IMG/VR virus record: IMGVR_UViG_3300037067_018912
Coordinates: 128,001-192,000 of that record
Direction: 5' to 3' (one strand)
Length of the DNA: 64,000 nucleotides
From: a virus
Lineage: Duplodnaviria; Caudoviricetes
The notes under the pieces are model-generated. The model did not search any database. It was given only the letters and a program-made list of their open reading frames with translations, and was not told where the DNA came from. Below are positions 27,786 through 34,227 of the stretch, piece by piece. Position numbers and translations under genes: made by a program. Every line of letters starts with the position of its first letter. The first letter of the stretch is position 1.

Positions 27786-28886
27786 TTACATAGCGAACCT
27801 TTGCTGCCTACGAGCCTTGTTCCTGAGTTCATTCACTTCACGGAGTGCGTTCGGATCGAATCTCTCTCTCTTAACCACACTCACGACATGGTTGAACTCA
27901 TTCTCGGTAATGACCTGACCGATGTACCCCTCGGTTTTGAGGATGTACGACTTCGGTGCTTTACTCGCCGAGGAAGGATTTCCTTCCGCATCAAGGGTCG
28001 CATCGAAGGTCAGTTCGAGCAGTTCTTGGATTTTTTCCTGAACGCTCGCTGTCATCTTCTGCTTCGTCCTTTTCAGAGCGGCCTCAAGCAGGTCTACAAT
28101 GTTGTCACGGTAGTCCTTCTTAATTTCCTCGTATGACTGCGAGAAGTTGTTCATCGTGGACTTATTCTTCAATTCGCTGATTATTGCAAGCGAACCGTAG
28201 CAGTCACGGATCATCAAATCCCACACCTGTTCGGCGTATGTGAAGGACGGGAACTTGTCGATTGCGACGATTTCACCGTCGATCAGCACGACTATACCGA
28301 TCAGATTCTTTGGACGTTCAAAGTGTGCAATGAACTGTTCAAGTTTCTTGTCATACTTATCGAAGTAGACATTAAGATACCTTCCTGCACCGGAATTAGT
28401 ATCATGGCCAAGTTTCTCAATCGCCGGATAAATCCTGCCAAGATTATGCGGTTGGCCGACAGTGTCGAAAACCATTTCACGCATTGTTACAGGAAGCATA
28501 CGGAACTCCTGAGTACCCCTGAACGTACCACCCTGCGAACCCTGAACGCAACCTGCGTCATTGAAGGTCACGCTCGACTTTTGAGCCATGTAACCCGCCT
28601 TGGTCATACCGTGGTTCTGCGCCGACTGCTTAGTTATAACAGCCATTTGCGTGGGCACAATAATCTCCTTGTCCTCCTTGTTAGTGAAGCCAATTTGACC
28701 ATAGTTGTTGTTACCCGCAACAAGTGCAGTCATGGGATTTCCAAAACGTTCGTCCATTGAATACTCCTTATCGGTCGTCAAACAGACGATTTGCATGTTC
28801 AAAATCGATTGAACTATGATGTTGCCGTCAGCGTCCTTGACGGGACGGCATCCTTTCAGCAATTCTACGAATTCTCTCGTGTTCAT
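27786..28886 (-). CDS. ARPP/DUF6569-like protein, translationally adjacent to the TROVE-like gene
   Basis: Motifs KQSAQNH...DAGCVQGSQG and GIVVLIDGEIVAIDKF resemble my recollection of the ARPP (DUF6569) family pattern (QNR...CVExxRW; GxxxxIxGxxxxxDxF). Starts 11 bp after the upstream stop. Confidence 0.5.
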   Translation of the reverse strand: MNTREFVELLKGCRPVKDADGNIIVQSILNMQIVCLTTDKEYSMDERFGNPMTALVAGNNNYGQIGFTNKEDKEIIVPTQMAVITKQSAQNHGMTKAGYMAQKSSVTFNDAGCVQGSQGGTFRGTQEFRMLPVTMREMVFDTVGQPHNLGRIYPAIEKLGHDTNSGAGRYLNVYFDKYDKKLEQFIAHFERPKNLIGIVVLIDGEIVAIDKFPSFTYAEQVWDLMIRDCYGSLAIISELKNKSTMNNFSQSYEEIKKDYRDNIVDLLEAALKRTKQKMTASVQEKIQELLELTFDATLDAEGNPSSASKAPKSYILKTEGYIGQVITENEFNHVVSVVKRERFDPNALREVNELRNKARRQQRFAM

Positions 28887-28897
28887 AACCGTAATTA

Positions 28898-30526
28898 TTA
28901 AGCGTTTACACTAATTTTCTTCAACCTCTTGACGGGTGCTGCTTCAAGAACAGCCACCTGATTTTCAAGCCACCTCTTGGTATCGATTTCAAGCAACCTT
29001 GCGTTGATCTGTGGTTGCAGTGCGACCGGGTTGTTTATCGCCATTGTGACGACTCCAGGACCCAACTTCCTCACATTCGCACCCATTTCAGCACTGACTA
29101 TCGGCGAAATTTGGAACACCGGAATGTCCCTGCCGCTTTCAGCCTTCCAAATCGAGATGACCTCGTTGGTCATGCCGTCATAAGCATTTTCATACCCGTC
29201 AGTCAAGATAAACATCGCATCAAACGGCTTCGAAGGATTCTCCTTCTTTAACAATTCGATGAACGAAGTTGCAAGATCGGTGACCTCATCCTTGGTTCTT
29301 ACAACGATGCTTGAATTCGCAGACCTTGCAAGAACTTTCGACGTAAAGTCGGCAATCGCCCTCGGCGTGTTCTTGGATTCTTGCTTGTGACCCGTCATCG
29401 AGTTGCTCTCGTCGAGCACAACACCGATGTTTTGATAGAAGAACCCTGTGATCTTCTTGCTTTCGGCAAGTTTATCAATCGCCACACCGATTTCACGAGT
29501 GAAACCGTTTTCATACCCCGTCTTGTACAGAGCAAGGAAATCGGTTGCCTTTTCGTAATCAACCGTCTTTTCAACACCCAACTTAGCCGTCGACTTCGTC
29601 TGACGGACTTGCTGGTTGACAGACGTCACTTCGGTAGACTTCCTGATCATTGCCTTGGTCGCCTCCCTTTGGAGTTTGGTCGCCCACATAGAATGATACT
29701 GCGGATGCCTTATGTTCGAGATCAAACCCAAAAGAACTTCTTCCGGGACGGTCTTGACACCTGTAATGTCACGCCTTGCCTTTTCGTATTCACTCAACAG
29801 CGGGAATTCGACTGCACCATAATCAACACCATCATTCCTTTTCATAATAAAGAGGAAGAGTTTGAACACCTTTATTGCTTCGATGTTGGTGTATCTCAAG
29901 ATGTGTTCGTTGACAATCTTTGCTTCCTTCTCGGTGCTTATGCCGGAAGGGTACGTCAACTGCTTGCGTGCGATAGTGACCAATATGGAGGCAGTTTTTC
30001 CACCATACACGTGTCTCAACGCCTTGGCAATCTTGTTACGGTACTTCATAGCATAGAATTCAAGGTTGTCCTGACCCCAAATGTACCCAAGCATGATCTT
30101 CCTCGACCTGTCGTTGTTCACCTTTGCATCTTTCAACGCAACGAACAAACGGAGGATATACGGAAGACCGTTCTCACCGAGGTTATTCAGGGCGCAAAGA
30201 ACCGCCTTGTCGCTCAATCCATTGTCGTACCAATCGATCGGGTTGACAATATGGTTCGCACCGCCCCGTAAAGTGTTTTTAAACTCATTGAGCAACACTT
30301 CGGAGATGAATTGACCTGTAGCACCCTTTTGGTTTGCCACGATCAATGGGAGTTCCTTTGAAAGAGTATACATTTTCTTTATCTGATCCTGTACGGCCTT
30401 CAATTGTTCGTCCTTCTTGTGGTAGTAAGTTGCACTACCCTTCGCAGCACTTGCAATAGTCAATCCTTCAATCAACGATTGTCTGATCGTGCCGAGCGTC
30501 TTTTGTGTCAATACCAAATCTTTCAT
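28898..30526 (-). CDS. Divergent TROVE/Ro60 (Rsr)-like protein with C-terminal vWA domain
   Basis: 542 aa, the size of Ro60. Long helical N-terminal region with an early ATYY motif. vWA MIDAS VVLDESNSM (DxSxS) and FILTDGYEN. Adjacent to Y-RNA-like tRNA mimics. Confidence 0.65.
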   Translation of the reverse strand: MKDLVLTQKTLGTIRQSLIEGLTIASAAKGSATYYHKKDEQLKAVQDQIKKMYTLSKELPLIVANQKGATGQFISEVLLNEFKNTLRGGANHIVNPIDWYDNGLSDKAVLCALNNLGENGLPYILRLFVALKDAKVNNDRSRKIMLGYIWGQDNLEFYAMKYRNKIAKALRHVYGGKTASILVTIARKQLTYPSGISTEKEAKIVNEHILRYTNIEAIKVFKLFLFIMKRNDGVDYGAVEFPLLSEYEKARRDITGVKTVPEEVLLGLISNIRHPQYHSMWATKLQREATKAMIRKSTEVTSVNQQVRQTKSTAKLGVEKTVDYEKATDFLALYKTGYENGFTREIGVAIDKLAESKKITGFFYQNIGVVLDESNSMTGHKQESKNTPRAIADFTSKVLARSANSSIVVRTKDEVTDLATSFIELLKKENPSKPFDAMFILTDGYENAYDGMTNEVISIWKAESGRDIPVFQISPIVSAEMGANVRKLGPGVVTMAINNPVALQPQINARLLEIDTKRWLENQVAVLEAAPVKRLKKISVNA

Positions 30527-30618
30527 CGTACAACAATTTTAATTTACAGTTATTCAAAAATCGCATGGTAAACATACGAATATTTTATTTCAATATCAAT
30601 TAAACCCAAAAAATAAAC

Positions 30619-30673
30619 AAAAAAAATGGGCAGATCGACCGACGCATTGCTGCGCCGATTCCCCCACCCATTT
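30619..30673 (-). terminator. Terminator-like hairpin ending the ncRNA array
   Basis: Minus strand AAAUGGGUGG...GCGCAGCAAUGCGU...CUGCCCAU followed by a U8 run, between the RNA array and the TROVE-like gene. Confidence 0.6.
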
Positions 30674-30704
30674 AATTATAGGAATGTTCTTCTCTTCTTC
30701 GATT

Positions 30705-30805
30705 AAGAAGAAGTGCGGTTGTATTGTCCTGTAAGTTTGCGCCCCCTACTCGAAAGCGGGAACGTTTCATGTTTCAATCTACTGAAAACACAGCCAGTTC
30801 TTCCC
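30705..30805 (-). ncRNA. Module RNA 1 (Y-RNA-like stem enclosing a GC-rich UUCG hairpin)
   Basis: 5' GGAAGAAC-UGGCUGUGUU-UUCAGUAG pairs with 3' AAUACAACC-GCAC-UUCUUCUU. The internal hairpin is CGUUCCC-GCU-UUCG-AGU-A-GGGGGCG. Confidence 0.7.
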
Positions 30806-31000
30806 TATTTTTTGTTTTTTGAAAAAATACAGCACTTCTGCCGTTAAAAACCATTCTTGACCATCAAATGTTAGGCGACGTGCCCCGTTTTTTACTAAAA
30901 ACTCTGACGCCGACAACCAAAAAATTCAAGCGGTGGGGTTTGCTTGTTTGACTTAAATTATAAATCCATTCGTTTTACCCATTTACCGCTTTTATAAAAA

Positions 31001-31141
31001 GGGGAACAGTTTGAAAGTAATTTTTGTTGTATTTGCAAGTTTACGAAACTCGTGCCTTAACCAACTTGGCTATTCGTCCAATTTTGGCGGACAAAGATGG
31101 AGTCGAACCATCGTTTTACTGGAATCACTTTCAGTTTTCCC
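31001..31141 (-). ncRNA. Module RNA 2: circularly permuted tRNA-like RNA (YrlA-like order, anticodon CGU)
   Basis: 5'->3': module strand, T-arm GAUGG-UUCGACU-CCAUC, acceptor 3' strand UUUGUCC-G-CCA, linker AAAUU, acceptor 5' strand GGACGAA, UA, D-arm GCCAAGUUGGUUAAGGC, anticodon arm CGAGU-UUCGUAA-ACUUG, module partner strand. Confidence 0.85.
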
Positions 31142-31147
31142 ATTTTG

Positions 31148-31281
31148 AGGGGAGAGCCGGGATCGAACCGACAATCAATTGTTTAATAGACAATTTGCTT
31201 TACCTTTACTGGAAACACCATTAGTTCTCCTGTTGAGGAGCAATGAGATAGTATTTTTCGTTTTTGATTTGCTATCTCCCC
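31148..31281 (-). ncRNA. Module RNA 3: tRNA-like RNA (anticodon AUU) with the module inserted in the D-loop
   Basis: Acceptor GGGGAGA/UCUCCCC, anticodon arm AUUGU-CUAUUAA-ACAAU, T-arm GUCGG-UUCGAUC-CCGGC. A ~65-nt D-loop insert carries AGGAGAAC-UAAUGGUGUU-UCCAGUAA. Confidence 0.8.
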
Positions 31282-31315
31282 TTGTAATCAATAAAAAAAG
31301 AACTCTTAAAAAATC

Positions 31316-31392
31316 AGAAGAAATTTGTTGGTTTTTGTTTTGTAGATATTGAATTTGCCTCTCAATTTACTGAAAAAACCATCAGTTCTTCC
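31316..31392 (-). ncRNA. Module RNA 4: minimal module with a small hairpin cargo
   Basis: GGAAGAAC-UGAUGGUUUU-UUCAGUAA pairs with AAAAACCAACA-AAU-UUCUUCU. The cargo hairpin is AUUGAG-AGGCAAA-UUCAAU. Confidence 0.7.
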
Positions 31393-31493
31393 TCAATGCC
31401 GATATTGAATGTGGTGTCGGCCTAATTCGGCCTCGATCTTACACTGTCTATCATCAGAACCACTAAACCACTCTCATGATCTCAATATACTTG

Positions 31494-31567
31494 TAGCGGG
31501 AGAGGGATTTGAACCCTCGAACTCTTGGTTATGAGCCAAGCGAGATGCCGGACTTCTCCACCCCGCA
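31494..31567 (-). tRNA. tRNA-Met(CAU), initiator-like; CCA not encoded
   Basis: UGCGGGG-UG-GAGA-AGUCCGGCA-UCUC-G-CUUGG-CUCAUAA-CCAAG-AGUUC-GAGGG-UUCAAAU-CCCUC-UCCCGCU-A. It has a 1:72 mismatch and an A11-U24 pair, as in fMet tRNAs. Confidence 0.85.
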
Positions 31568-31641
31568 ATGTGAAACGTTGATTCGGGTTCAACGTTTAAA
31601 ACCTTTACAAATTCCTTACACAAGGTAAAGAACTAAAATTT

Positions 31642-31771
31642 AAAAAGGATAGTTTGTTTGTTGTCTTGTTTTTAACAAAATCGGACTTGAACCGACAACG
31701 TACTGCTCTGAAGGCAATTCCTCTTCCAATTGAGGTATTTGTTTACTGAAACAACACTCAGTTTCCTTTTT
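31642..31771 (-). ncRNA. Module RNA 5: tRNA cloverleaf (anticodon UCA) with the module extending the acceptor stem
   Basis: AAGGAAAC-UGAGUGUUGU-UUCAGUAA, then acceptor AACAAA/UUUGUU, D-arm CCUC-AAUUGGAA-GAGG, anticodon arm AUUGC-CUUCAGA-GCAGU, T-arm GUCGG-UUCAAGU-CCGAU, then partner strand GACAACA...AACUAUCCUUUUU. Confidence 0.8.
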
Positions 31772-31774
31772 TTG

Positions 31775-31907
31775 TGGGGAGAGTCGGATTTGAACCAACA
31801 ATCAATTGTTTTACGGACAATTTGCTTTACCTATTACTGTAAACACTAATAGTTCTCCTGTTAAGGAGTATGAGATAGTATTTTCGTTTTGTTTTTGCTA
31901 TCTCCCC
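31775..31907 (-). ncRNA. Module RNA 6: paralog of RNA 3 with anticodon GUA
   Basis: Same scaffold as 31148-31281. Anticodon loop CCGUAAA, discriminator A. The D-loop insert carries AGGAGAAC-UAUUAGUGUU-UACAGUAA. Confidence 0.8.
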
Positions 31908-31954
31908 ATGTAAAATTCAAAATTTAAAAGAACTCTTTTGTCATTAAGACGATG

Positions 31955-31986
31955 CAAACATAATTCGAATTTTTTAATTCTCCAAA
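31955..31986 (-). promoter_or_regulatory. Bacteroidota-type housekeeping promoter driving the ncRNA array
   Basis: Minus strand TTTG (31986-31983), 20-nt spacer, TATGTTTG (31962-31955). This matches the -33/-7 consensus TTTG-N19-21-TAnnTTTG. Confidence 0.75.
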
Positions 31987-32036
31987 TGTTTTTGCAAAAA
32001 AATTAAAAAAAATTTTATTCAGTCTATTTCGAACAT

Positions 32037-32044
32037 ATAAATAC
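32037..32044 (-). promoter_or_regulatory. GTATTTAT motif (putative phage late promoter) upstream of the ncRNA array
   Basis: The same octamer precedes ~10 other transcription units in the window. Confidence 0.5.
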
Positions 32045-32082
32045 GTGAAAATTTCAAAAAAGACGCAAAAAACTATAAAATT

Positions 32083-34125
32083 TTATAATTTATTTTCTTT
32101 CTTCTTCATAACGTGTTGATTTGCACCCAATTTCGCAAGCATATCACGGACAATCTTACCATTTCCTTCCGGTTCTTCGGAATCCAACGGCAAGTTGTTG
32201 AAATCAAATTCCACAGTATCGGTGTTTTCAAATGGTTTATAGGTGGGTATCATTCCCCCATTTTGTAATTTTACCTCTTCGGTTTTTTCCTTTGGGGGAC
32301 TTGTTTCTGGGGGTTTCACATCCTCAATCCTCACCTCCGGCGGTTCGACAACATCCGGATTGGTGGTATAAGTCTCCCCTGTCCATCCAAACGGATTATC
32401 TAATTCATTCAACACGTCCTTCACCTTGTCGCTTGCCTCTTCAAGCAATGATTTGGTCTGCACCTCGACCACAATATTCTTTTCCACAGGTACGTTCTCA
32501 TCAAACTCAATCAAAGAATCATCTTCCACAGGTTTCTGTACCTTATTCTCATTCATTTGGGCGTACTTTTCTCCCATTCCGGTCACCAAATCTTCATTCG
32601 CCCTTCCTATAGCACGTGATTCAAAATCCTTGATGGTATCACCATCAGTAACATCACTCACCGCTACATGTATTAAATTTATTTTATCGTCAGATAATAA
32701 TCCCGCTTGCCCCTCAATCCTACCCAATGCCTCATCAGTAGCACCTGGTGGCAATTTCCTTGTGTATTTAAGTGGATATCTCTTATCCTCAATAACGATC
32801 ATCATTTTATCGTTATCGAAAATACAGTCACTAAACGTTTGACCATCACGTGCGAACCTCGCCTTAATAATCTTTATTGTTGCAAGATTGGCCTCCTTTT
32901 GATCGTCTGTCTTGGCCACACTCATGAAGAAATGCGCTTTTTGTAATCTTTTAATGCTTCCACCCGTCTGAAACGCCTCAACTATTTCAGCGTTAAGTCC
33001 GCCACGATTTGTTTGAAGTGCCGTCCAGGCAGGAATGTCCATATCAGACGCCATTGCTTCAAACGATTTAATAATCACCAATTCCGCCTCTGTTCTATCA
33101 GGAGTCTTCTTGTGTGAATCGAGACAATCAAGGTAGTCGAGCACCACAATATCAAACTTGAATCCATATTTCTTTTGATGCCTGTTAATCCACGCCCGGA
33201 CATCCATCATGGTGGTGTTTTCCTGACTCATCTTGATAATGACAAGTCTACCCTTACCTTTCATTTTTTCGGCTTGGGCAACGACTATTTCCTTAACTTT
33301 TTTATTTTCCTCATCCATCTTACTCAATGGTACTCCTGACCAAATCGTAAAATGCTTCCTTTGAATTTGTTCAACAGTATCCTCAAATATGATCTGTAAC
33401 ACATTCTTATTGCATTCATATGCAGTATTGGCAATCTTCGTCAATGCGGTCGTCTTTCCAACCCCCGAAGGTGTCAGAATCACCCCAATCTCACCTTTAC
33501 CAAGACCACCACCCGTTAATGTATCAATCACATCAATGCCTGTTGGTATGGTCTGTCTAAATTCCTTTCTCAACACTCTATCGATGTTCTCAAATACTTC
33601 CGTGCCTTCATCCTCTTCAGCACCAATATGTGCAATTTTTAGAAATTTCTCTTCAATTTGGGCGATAACGTGTTTATTCTTTATTTCACCATTTTTCGTT
33701 TTATCAATAATAAATTCACCAGTCTTCCTATATTCTTGTTGTTTAATGAACATATTCGCCGACCTGCGGACAATTTCCCCATCGTGCAACATTTCCTTGT
33801 TCAAAACCCTATCATTCCACAATTCAATTTGTTGAAGTGCAGAGAACACCGATTCCTCCTCAATCTTGTTGTTCGGTGTCTTAAATTCATTGATTGCCTG
33901 TTGGATGCTGCGGTTTTGAAGATTAGGAACTTTACCATATTCCTTAAAGAACTCGTAGATGATGATGAACATCCTCTTCATGATAGGTTCATCAAAATAA
34001 TCGACAGCCAAATTCGGCAGTATTTTCTCTGCGAATTCGGGTTCGACAAGGAGTTGCCACATCATCTTCCGTTGAAAATCCGGACCGAGATACGATGTGA
34101 AAGTATTTTCAACAGTTTCGCTCAT
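32083..34125 (-). CDS. Replicative DnaB-like (T4 gp41-type) helicase with acidic C-terminal extension
   Basis: IPTGIDVIDTLTGGGLGKGEIGVILTPSGVGKT (Walker A), VVLDYLD (Walker B), WTALQTNR and KARFA. The start is more likely the ATG at 34125 (MSETVEN) than 34176. Confidence 0.9.
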   Translation of the reverse strand: MSETVENTFTSYLGPDFQRKMMWQLLVEPEFAEKILPNLAVDYFDEPIMKRMFIIIYEFFKEYGKVPNLQNRSIQQAINEFKTPNNKIEEESVFSALQQIELWNDRVLNKEMLHDGEIVRRSANMFIKQQEYRKTGEFIIDKTKNGEIKNKHVIAQIEEKFLKIAHIGAEEDEGTEVFENIDRVLRKEFRQTIPTGIDVIDTLTGGGLGKGEIGVILTPSGVGKTTALTKIANTAYECNKNVLQIIFEDTVEQIQRKHFTIWSGVPLSKMDEENKKVKEIVVAQAEKMKGKGRLVIIKMSQENTTMMDVRAWINRHQKKYGFKFDIVVLDYLDCLDSHKKTPDRTEAELVIIKSFEAMASDMDIPAWTALQTNRGGLNAEIVEAFQTGGSIKRLQKAHFFMSVAKTDDQKEANLATIKIIKARFARDGQTFSDCIFDNDKMMIVIEDKRYPLKYTRKLPPGATDEALGRIEGQAGLLSDDKINLIHVAVSDVTDGDTIKDFESRAIGRANEDLVTGMGEKYAQMNENKVQKPVEDDSLIEFDENVPVEKNIVVEVQTKSLLEEASDKVKDVLNELDNPFGWTGETYTTNPDVVEPPEVRIEDVKPPETSPPKEKTEEVKLQNGGMIPTYKPFENTDTVEFDFNNLPLDSEEPEGNGKIVRDMLAKLGANQHVMKKKENKL

Positions 34126-34227
34126 ATAAGTGCGTAAAATGAGGGGGCAGTTGCAGAAAACAACTACAAATAGCAACGGTGAACAATTATTGAAACTAAC
34201 TTTGCAACCGCCCTTATGTTATTATTT

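Follow-up and report, generated by a model that had tools for sequence, protein, structure and literature searches.

Ro60 proteins and Y RNAs are conserved from bacteria to humans, and a bacterial Y RNA tethers PNPase to Rsr. Bacterial and phage Ro60 genes typically adjoin those of their Y RNAs, one subclass of which, YrlA, mimics tRNA (PMC4201824); phage phiLo has two Y-like RNA genes immediately ahead of its Ro60 gene, and its Ro60 binds both RNAs (PMC12135203), and in Salmonella RtcB lies in one operon with rsr and yrlA (PMC7790460). The present analysis concerns a window of 64,000 nucleotides (nt) at bases 128001-192000 of a phage genome that has direct terminal repeats and measures 357 kb (IMGVR_UViG_3300037067_018912), and in it an array of six RNAs that have a stem in common and lie beside a gene for a Ro60-like protein of 542 amino acids (aa). 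Two of the six, here called copy 1 and copy 2, are paralogous tRNA-shaped RNAs that carry this stem as an insert in the D loop. Our preferred reading, to which we assign a probability of roughly 0.6, is that these RNAs are Y-RNA-style mimics that partner the phage's Ro60-like protein, both their binding and their expression being predicted.

The two copies share with YrlA (RF02553; PMC4201824; bioRxiv 10.1101/312249), which occurs in phages and bacteria, a small size, a place beside a Ro60-family gene and a plan in which a protein-binding stem (here putative) is combined with a tRNA-like domain that has a T arm, a D-loop GG and an acceptor stem. In YrlA, however, the two RNA ends pair into the Ro-binding stem while a loop closes the acceptor; here it is the acceptor stem that holds the ends, and the other stem is capped inside the D loop; moreover, a full anticodon arm is kept, the motif GNCGAAN0-1G is absent, RF02553 does not match, and the neighbouring protein has no detectable TROVE sequence signature. 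The phiLo system (Ro60 with Yrl1 and Yrl2; PMC12135203; PDB 9KOP, 9L5Y) likewise has a phage Ro60 with Y-like RNAs directly upstream, but its RNAs are ordinary stem-bulge-stem Y RNAs that have a CGAA motif and no tRNA shape, while here there are six RNAs with the motif set AACU, GUGUUU and CAGUA. Transfer-messenger RNA (tmRNA) resembles the copies in its tRNA-like acceptor and T-arm domain with free ends, its large insertion and its reduced D region, but has pseudoknots and an open reading frame (ORF) in place of the anticodon arm, which here is intact and is joined by a D-loop stem of 62 nt; the array contains a single tmRNA match, partial and of 7 bits, at 31096-31113, outside both copies. 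Relative to the literature searched, the RNAs are most likely a new form of the Ro60/Y-RNA/tRNA-mimic theme and not a member of YrlA.

Structure and conservation of the D-insert RNAs

The original prediction, made from the letters of the window, described two near-duplicate RNAs with intact acceptor, anticodon and T stems, a D-loop insert of about 60-65 nt with a CUCCU-YAAC-AGGAG hairpin, and diverged anticodon loops and discriminators. All of these elements are present, on the minus strand, and are laid out as follows.

Copy 1: 31148..31281, minus strand, read 31281 to 31148; tRNA-shaped RNA of 134 nt with D-loop insert and discriminator U; 168 bits with the covariance model (CM) described below
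Copy 2: 31775..31907, minus strand, read 31907 to 31775; paralog of 133 nt with discriminator A, first RNA of the array; 165.6 bits with the CM
Anticodon loop of copy 1: 31183..31189, minus strand; CUAUUAA, with A34, U35 and U36
Anticodon loop of copy 2: 31810..31816, minus strand; CCGUAAA, with C33 and G34, U35, A36
Insert of copy 1: 31205..31267, minus strand; RNA nt 15-77
Insert of copy 2: 31832..31893, minus strand; RNA nt 15-76
A-rich linker of the insert: 31257-31267 (copy 1), 31884-31893 (copy 2)
5' strand of helix H1: 31248-31256 (copy 1), 31875-31883 (copy 2)
Internal loop: 31241-31247 (copy 1), 31869-31874 (copy 2)
Hairpin H2: 31227-31240 (copy 1), 31855-31868 (copy 2)
AACU: 31223-31226 (copy 1), 31851-31854 (copy 2)
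3' strand of H1: 31213-31221 (copy 1), 31841-31849 (copy 2)
End of the insert: CCAGUAAA, 31205-31212 (copy 1); ACAGUAAUA, 31832-31840 (copy 2)

The copies are identical in 115 of 135 aligned columns (85%). Both have an acceptor stem of 7 base pairs (bp; GGGGAGA/UCUCCCC) and an anticodon stem of 5-6 bp (AAUUGU/ACAAUU); the T arms, each with a 5-bp stem, read GUCGG-UUCGAUC-CCGGC in copy 1 and GUUGG-UUCAAAU-CCGAC in copy 2, a compensated change from C-G to U-A that bears out the claim that T-stem pairing is preserved. The D stem is indeed down to 2 bp, as had been noted, with pairing possible only for G10-C25 and C11-G24; the U8-A14 segment is UAGCAAA, and GGUAAAGC, which follows the insert, carries G18, G19 and the 3' half of this short stem. 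Within the insert (62-63 nt), H1 pairs AAAUACUAU with NNNGUGUUU over 9 bp. RNAfold also predicts H1 and H2 of copy 1, and both copies fold better than shuffled sequence (z -2.5 and -3.5).

The whole genome contains the pattern AACU-N11-CAGUA, which we call the module, six times, and all six lie in the window, on the minus strand within the 1.4-kb array, against an expectation of 0.21. It is the 3' strand of a longer stem and not a self-contained hairpin. H1 takes its 3' strand from the module centre, GUGUUU, and its 5' strand, AAAUACUAU, from an earlier part of the insert; the GGAG before this centre is the 3' strand of H2, AACU sits in the internal loop between H1 and H2, and CAGUA comes after H1, where the insert meets the tRNA body. 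A stand-alone ACUG/CAGU hairpin within the module was considered and rejected; covariation instead favours the pairing of GUGUUU with the upstream AAAUAC.

The 542-aa protein served to collect related loci (73 viral contigs, 59-90% identity), on which a CM built from the two window copies was then run. This returned 78 strong matches of 59-168 bits, all on the gene strand upstream of the 542-aa gene and amounting to 57 distinct sequences; one to three copies are found 0.4-2.8 kb upstream of that gene, on the same strand, in 62 of the 73 loci, a position that matches the encoding of YrlA and Y RNAs beside Ro60/TROVE-family genes, the protein here being Ro60-like by fold only. The RNAalifold consensus of a MAFFT alignment of 55 distinct sequences consists of five helices, namely the acceptor stem (7 bp), H1 (9 bp), the H2 hairpin (CUCC/GGAG), the anticodon stem (5 bp) and the T stem (5 bp). 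In this alignment 97.8% of the cells assigned to helices are paired, and 22 of 30 pairs have changed on both sides; none of 500 shuffles reaches these values, and slid controls are about 50% paired. Acceptor pairing is complete (7/7) in 54 of the 57 sequences and that of the T and anticodon stems (5/5) in nearly all. A second body type (GGGGAAGUAUGCGA..., type 2) has a D stem of 3 bp.

The nucleotides that form the elbow of tRNA (U8, A14, G18-G19 and U54-U55-C56-A58) are kept as well: U8 in 55 of 55 sequences, A14 in 54, G18 in 52, G19 in 48, U55 and C56 in 54 each and A58 in 53. The body therefore very probably adopts the L shape of a tRNA, the insert projecting where the D loop is exposed. 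The most conserved parts of the whole RNA are the insert stem and its AACU and CAGUA motifs; AAC, CAG, U81, U84 and U85 are each found in 55 of 55 sequences.

tRNA finders pass the copies over: ARAGORN makes no call on either, and the Rfam tRNA model RF00005 gives partial matches of 20.6 and 21.0 bits, under its cut-off of 29. Such a result might suggest decaying tRNA pseudogenes broken by a repeat. The random stem decay in homologs that the original prediction had named as its refutation is not seen, and the pseudogene explanation is itself refuted by the five helices that compensatory change maintains across the 55 sequences, at a level that none of the 500 shuffles matches. As judged from this conservation, the two copies are genuine, selected small-RNA genes. 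In representative prokaryote genomes the module pattern has more than 120 single matches, approximately the number expected by chance for 16 fixed bases, and none of 80 such loci checked holds the RNA; among viral contigs the exact pattern brings in four extra fragments of the same phage group, each of which ends before the position of the protein gene. Neither module nor RNA was found outside this phage group in the prokaryote genomes and viral contigs searched.

The Ro60-like neighbour and the stem shared by six RNAs

Ro60-like gene: 28898-30526, minus strand; 542 aa; flanks the array gap and encodes the putative protein partner of the array RNAs

The 542-aa protein resembles Ro60 in its predicted fold. 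An AlphaFold2 model made from a 31-sequence alignment (predicted local distance difference test score 76, predicted template-modelling score 0.72) has a helical N-terminal part of about 360 residues, like the TROVE ring, and an alpha/beta C-terminal von Willebrand factor A (vWA) domain. The best 13 matches of Foldseek in the PDB are all Ro60/Rsr/TROVE structures, over the full length and with E values of 9e-6 to 1e-3; with VIA-align the top 10 are again all Ro60/TROVE (Z 11.7-15.9), some 400 aa being aligned across residues 16-528 and thus both domains, and the best of them is the Ro60 of the Thermus phage phiLo (Z 15.9), matches to the vWA domain alone ranking lower. The DxSxS motif of the metal-ion-dependent adhesion site (D372, S374, S376) is invariant. 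On the strength of this modelled fold we accept the protein as a very divergent Ro60-like protein.

Besides copies 1 and 2, the array holds four RNAs with the module, which span 30755..31770 on the minus strand.

tRNA(UCA)-in-stem RNA: about 31642-31770, minus strand; module stem AAAAAGG ... CCUUUUU encloses a tRNA
Small-hairpin RNA: about 31300-31395, minus strand
Permuted tRNA-Thr(CGU)-like RNA: 31001-31141, minus strand; circularly permuted, folding z -4.1
Stem-only RNA: about 30755-30806, minus strand

The same stem can form in all four in other topologies, either with a downstream partner strand or as a capped hairpin. The tRNA enclosed in the first has a weak, A/U-rich acceptor stem with an A1-A72 mismatch, and its equivalents in related phages have many different anticodons. 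The permuted RNA runs from the module strand through the T arm, the 3' acceptor strand, a G-CCA-AAAUU loop, the 5' acceptor strand, the D arm and the anticodon arm to the partner strand of the module stem, and it pairs GAAAGUGAUU with AAUUACUUUC and GGGAA with UUCCC. Read from its start, the array opens with copy 2, which the tRNA(UCA)-in-stem RNA adjoins, and copy 1 directly precedes the permuted RNA; this order of RNA classes is kept among relatives. Across relatives the partner strand stands at fixed distances specific to each class, with compensatory changes such as GUGAUU/AAUUAC versus GUGUUU/AAAUAC. An ungapped partner-strand statistic has little power in such A/U-rich sequence, shuffled controls reaching 12-13 of 14 pairs, so that the evidence for the stem across classes is supportive rather than conclusive, and only geometry and single compensatory changes were used. 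Y RNAs are built on the same plan, a sequence-conserved stem with an internal loop attached to bodies that vary.

One stem recurs in six RNAs encoded beside a Ro60-like gene, and we infer that it is the docking site for the Ro60-like ring, which would make the RNAs analogues of Y RNAs. Each copy would be a stable non-coding RNA of two modules: a near-complete tRNA body, with an acceptor stem whose 5' and 3' ends are free, a T arm, an anticodon arm and the elbow nucleotides, and an irregular stem of about 45 nt (H2, the AACU loop, H1 with GUGUUU, and CAGUA) that is inserted where the D loop is variable. The partners of the tRNA-shaped part, whose anticodon loop changes quickly, would be tRNA-recognising proteins, perhaps nucleases that attack tRNA, perhaps enzymes of repair or processing, of which the phage's own RtcB is one; the RNA would tether, sequester or present that partner as a bacterial Y RNA does PNPase on Rsr.

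Several observations weigh against this interpretation. The 542-aa protein, searched singly or as a 31-sequence profile, has no match in Pfam, NCBIfam, PHROGs or PDB sequences; the Pfam TROVE family PF05731 finds nothing in the genome, consistent with a protein that has no TROVE sequence signature, and the Foldseek TM-scores are modest (0.3-0.4). The genomic linkage is in part built in, as the loci were fetched through the protein itself. The known Ro/Rsr-binding motifs (GGUCCGA; GNCGAAN0-1G/CGAA) are absent from the conserved stem, CGAA being confined to the non-conserved linker in some few of the copies. The YrlA model RF02553 has no match on copies 1 or 2; its only match in the array scores 18.3 bits (threshold 69) on the permuted RNA, which does not exceed the sub-threshold matches of up to 26.8 bits in the phage's ordinary tRNA cluster. 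Finally, the RNA ends in the acceptor stem and not in the protein-binding stem, unlike every described Y RNA, and could for that reason still be CCA-tailed and charged; no CCA is encoded, the 3' flank being mostly CAAA.

This phage group has one putative protein-binding stem grafted on tRNA scaffolds in several topologies, one of which is a complete tRNA whose acceptor end is free and whose anticodon loop changes fast, and the stem has no known Ro-binding motif. If the binding holds, the definition of Y RNAs and of RNA recognition by Ro60 would widen, the D loop would offer a natural example of a tolerated insertion site in tRNA, and Ro60 particles would be linked, in a way open to testing, to the arms race over tRNA between phages and bacteria.

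Anticodon loops and the question of decoding

The comparison of anticodons among homologs that had been proposed as a check shows at least 15 kinds on one almost constant body in the 57 sequences (UGA in 26, GUA in 8, AUG in 4, and UUG, UUA and UUC in 3 each), the serine-type UGA copies having no long variable arm. The C33 that had been pointed out in copy 2 as abnormal is part of a wider trend, position 33 being other than U in 19 of the 57, including all eight GUA loops; A37 is kept in 55, and the loop nearly always has 7 nt. Positions 32-36 have an entropy of 1.2-1.6 bits, equalled only by the loop of H2. Copies that precede the tRNA-in-stem RNA, of which copy 2 is an example, mostly have the loop C-N-G-U-A-A-A, which is that of tRNA-Tyr with U33 changed to A, C or G. 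That this loop recurs on two body types suggests that the loop sequence is under selection and U33 avoided. Against strong diversifying selection stands the comparison of close sequence pairs, in which loop changes account for 2 of 29 differences and are not in excess.

One elaboration of the Y-RNA-style reading would have the Ro60-like ring loaded, through the common stem, with a panel of tRNA look-alikes as a programmable bait that captures and neutralises host tRNA-cleaving nucleases or hands damaged tRNAs to RtcB. The loops would then copy host tRNAs (Tyr-, Asn/His-, Glu-, Gln- and Ser-like) while position 33 or 34 made them uncleavable or non-decoding, and the repertoire would track the defences of each host; we regard this more specific proposal as rather doubtful. 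The same loops might instead belong to tRNA decoys or competitive inhibitors that act independently of the Ro60-like protein, the loop baiting a tRNA-cleaving or tRNA-modifying enzyme and the stem binding another factor or stabilising or marking the RNA. That no part of the RNA varies more than positions 32-36, that many loops resemble real anticodon loops altered at position 33 or 34, and that RNAs in the first slot of the array keep the U33-replaced Tyr loop on both body types would all fit such decoys, yet they leave unexplained why the stem is common to six RNAs that adjoin a Ro60-like gene in all 62 copy-bearing loci, and the small share of loop changes in close pairs does not favour them either. 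We consider independent decoys unlikely.

A further possibility is that the copies are working tRNAs in which the insert is tolerated, or from which it is excised before the halves are joined again, by RtcB for instance, giving tRNAs of about 71 nt with unusual anticodon loops that would escape host anticodon nucleases. Phage tRNAs with anticodon-loop changes that evade nucleases have been described. In favour of this view are the intact acceptor, T and anticodon arms and elbow nucleotides, the near-constant A37 and 7-nt loop, the 71 nt that removal of the insert would leave, and an RtcB RNA ligase gene in the genome (348880-349941, minus strand of the genome, 153 bits), which lies outside the window and far from the array. 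The rest of the evidence points the other way. Even without the insert the D stem would have only 2-3 bp, U33 is missing in a third of the sequences (19 of 57), and one near-constant body carries many anticodons, including UGA without the long arm of serine tRNAs; of the features of canonical tRNA, the stems and tertiary nucleotides are present, whereas the D arm (normally 3-4 bp and a loop of 7-11 nt), position 33 (normally U) and the match between anticodon and body deviate. One shortened relative of about 95 nt (L059:3076-3170) passes directly from the module to the T arm and apparently lacks the anticodon arm and the 3' half of the D region. The RNAs are also not needed as decoders, because a separate plus-strand cluster (genome 249256 to about 278000, outside the window) encodes about 58 ordinary tRNAs and a tmRNA; its full set includes two Tyr-GUA, two Asn-GUU and a Ser-UGA, none with the module. 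No specific parent of the copies was found among these tRNAs, the nearest sharing 47 of 71 positions. One ARAGORN call in this cluster has a four-base anticodon (gcgc).

As to removal of the insert, which the original prediction had offered as an intron-like alternative, the splicing endonuclease PF01974 was not found in the genome, no intron or ribozyme family of Rfam matches at E<=10 (HDV-like, hammerhead and group I elements were considered for the insert and rejected on this basis), and in the RNAalifold structure no helix brings the insert junctions together, the 5' junction lying in the unpaired A-rich linker. Intron-containing, split and permuted tRNA genes of archaea and of red and green algae are similar in their non-canonical interruption, and a permuted tRNA-like gene adjoins copy 1; those genes, however, rely on a bulge-helix-bulge motif and an endonuclease to yield normal tRNAs, neither of which is found here, and here the insert is itself the conserved, shared element. 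Since the insert, the most conserved part, recurs as a stem in neighbouring RNAs where nothing could be spliced, an intron is disfavoured, and working tRNAs as a whole seem to us distinctly improbable. The original prediction's preference for mimics over decoders is supported by the selection on structure, the variable loops, the vestigial D stem, the separate tRNA set and the linkage to a Ro60-like gene.

The array and its surroundings

GTTCTTT box upstream of copy 1: 31297-31303, minus strand
GTTCTTT box upstream of copy 2: 31927-31933, minus strand
DnaB-like helicase gene: 32083-34176; one flank of the array gap
ARPP-1-domain gene (PF20208, E 3.5e-11): 27786-28886, minus strand; next after the Ro60-like gene

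All large ORFs in the window are on the minus strand, and the array occupies a 1.55-kb gap without credible ORFs (30527-32082) between the DnaB-like helicase gene and the Ro60-like gene. ARPP-1 is a predicted enzyme thought to target ribose or ADP-ribose moieties (PMC9503650). Most members of the D-insert family have a GTTCTTT box 9-25 nt upstream. The box is not enriched genome-wide (17 sites versus 5-12 in shuffles), and pairing with GAGAAC of the module at the RNA level was rejected, as the box remains GTTCT where the module has AAAAC, without covariation; a dedicated promoter element is for these reasons more likely than an RNA partner, and the box may be a candidate for one.

tRNA-like elements are known as processing signals, and the next RNA of the array begins within 5-10 nt of each copy, as it would if the tRNA shape had no function of its own and served to recruit RNase P and RNase Z and so release the neighbouring RNAs. 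Such punctuation would leave the conserved 62-nt insert, its invariant motifs and the retained anticodon arm unexplained; moreover, 31 of the 57 distinct copies have no module RNA after them, and the GTTCTTT box suggests that the copies have promoters of their own. We hold it to be very improbable.

The copies may also adopt a second fold. CUAUCUC (31245..31251, minus strand, in copy 1; twin at 31872-31878 in copy 2) is complementary to RNA nt 4-10, GAGAUAG, and the resulting 5' hairpin of the commonest body type excludes the acceptor stem and part of H1. In this register 79.5% of cells pair across the alignment; the overall covariation is weak, but three lineages have matched changes in the two strands (L022, GAGUUAG/CUAACUC; L078, GGAAUAG/CUAUUCC; and L052), and the second body type forms a different 5' hairpin, AUGCGA/UCGUAU. 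A folding intermediate or a conformational switch is possible. A kissing interaction of the anticodon loop with UUUNC of the module was rejected: full complementarity is found in only 6 of 52 sequences, where shuffling gives 2.8 on average and 40 of 2000 shuffles perform equally well, the register varies, and the relatedness of the sequences is a confounder.

A structured, G+C-rich element followed by a U run (30557-30700, minus strand) separates the last module RNA from the Ro60-like gene; terminator-like hairpins are seen at 30829-30844 and 30561-30579. Between the two copies the only tRNA calls of ARAGORN and Rfam are a Met-CAU tRNA (31493-31567) and the UCA tRNA (31671-31745), both ordinary-looking. 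The interval between tRNA-Met and the next module RNA (31400-31492, minus strand) contains the tRNA-like fragments GUGGUUUAGUGGUU ... GGCCGAAUUAGGCC ... ACCAC, which may be a degraded D-insert copy; in one relative (L007) a third D-insert RNA, L007:1918-2045, occupies the equivalent position.

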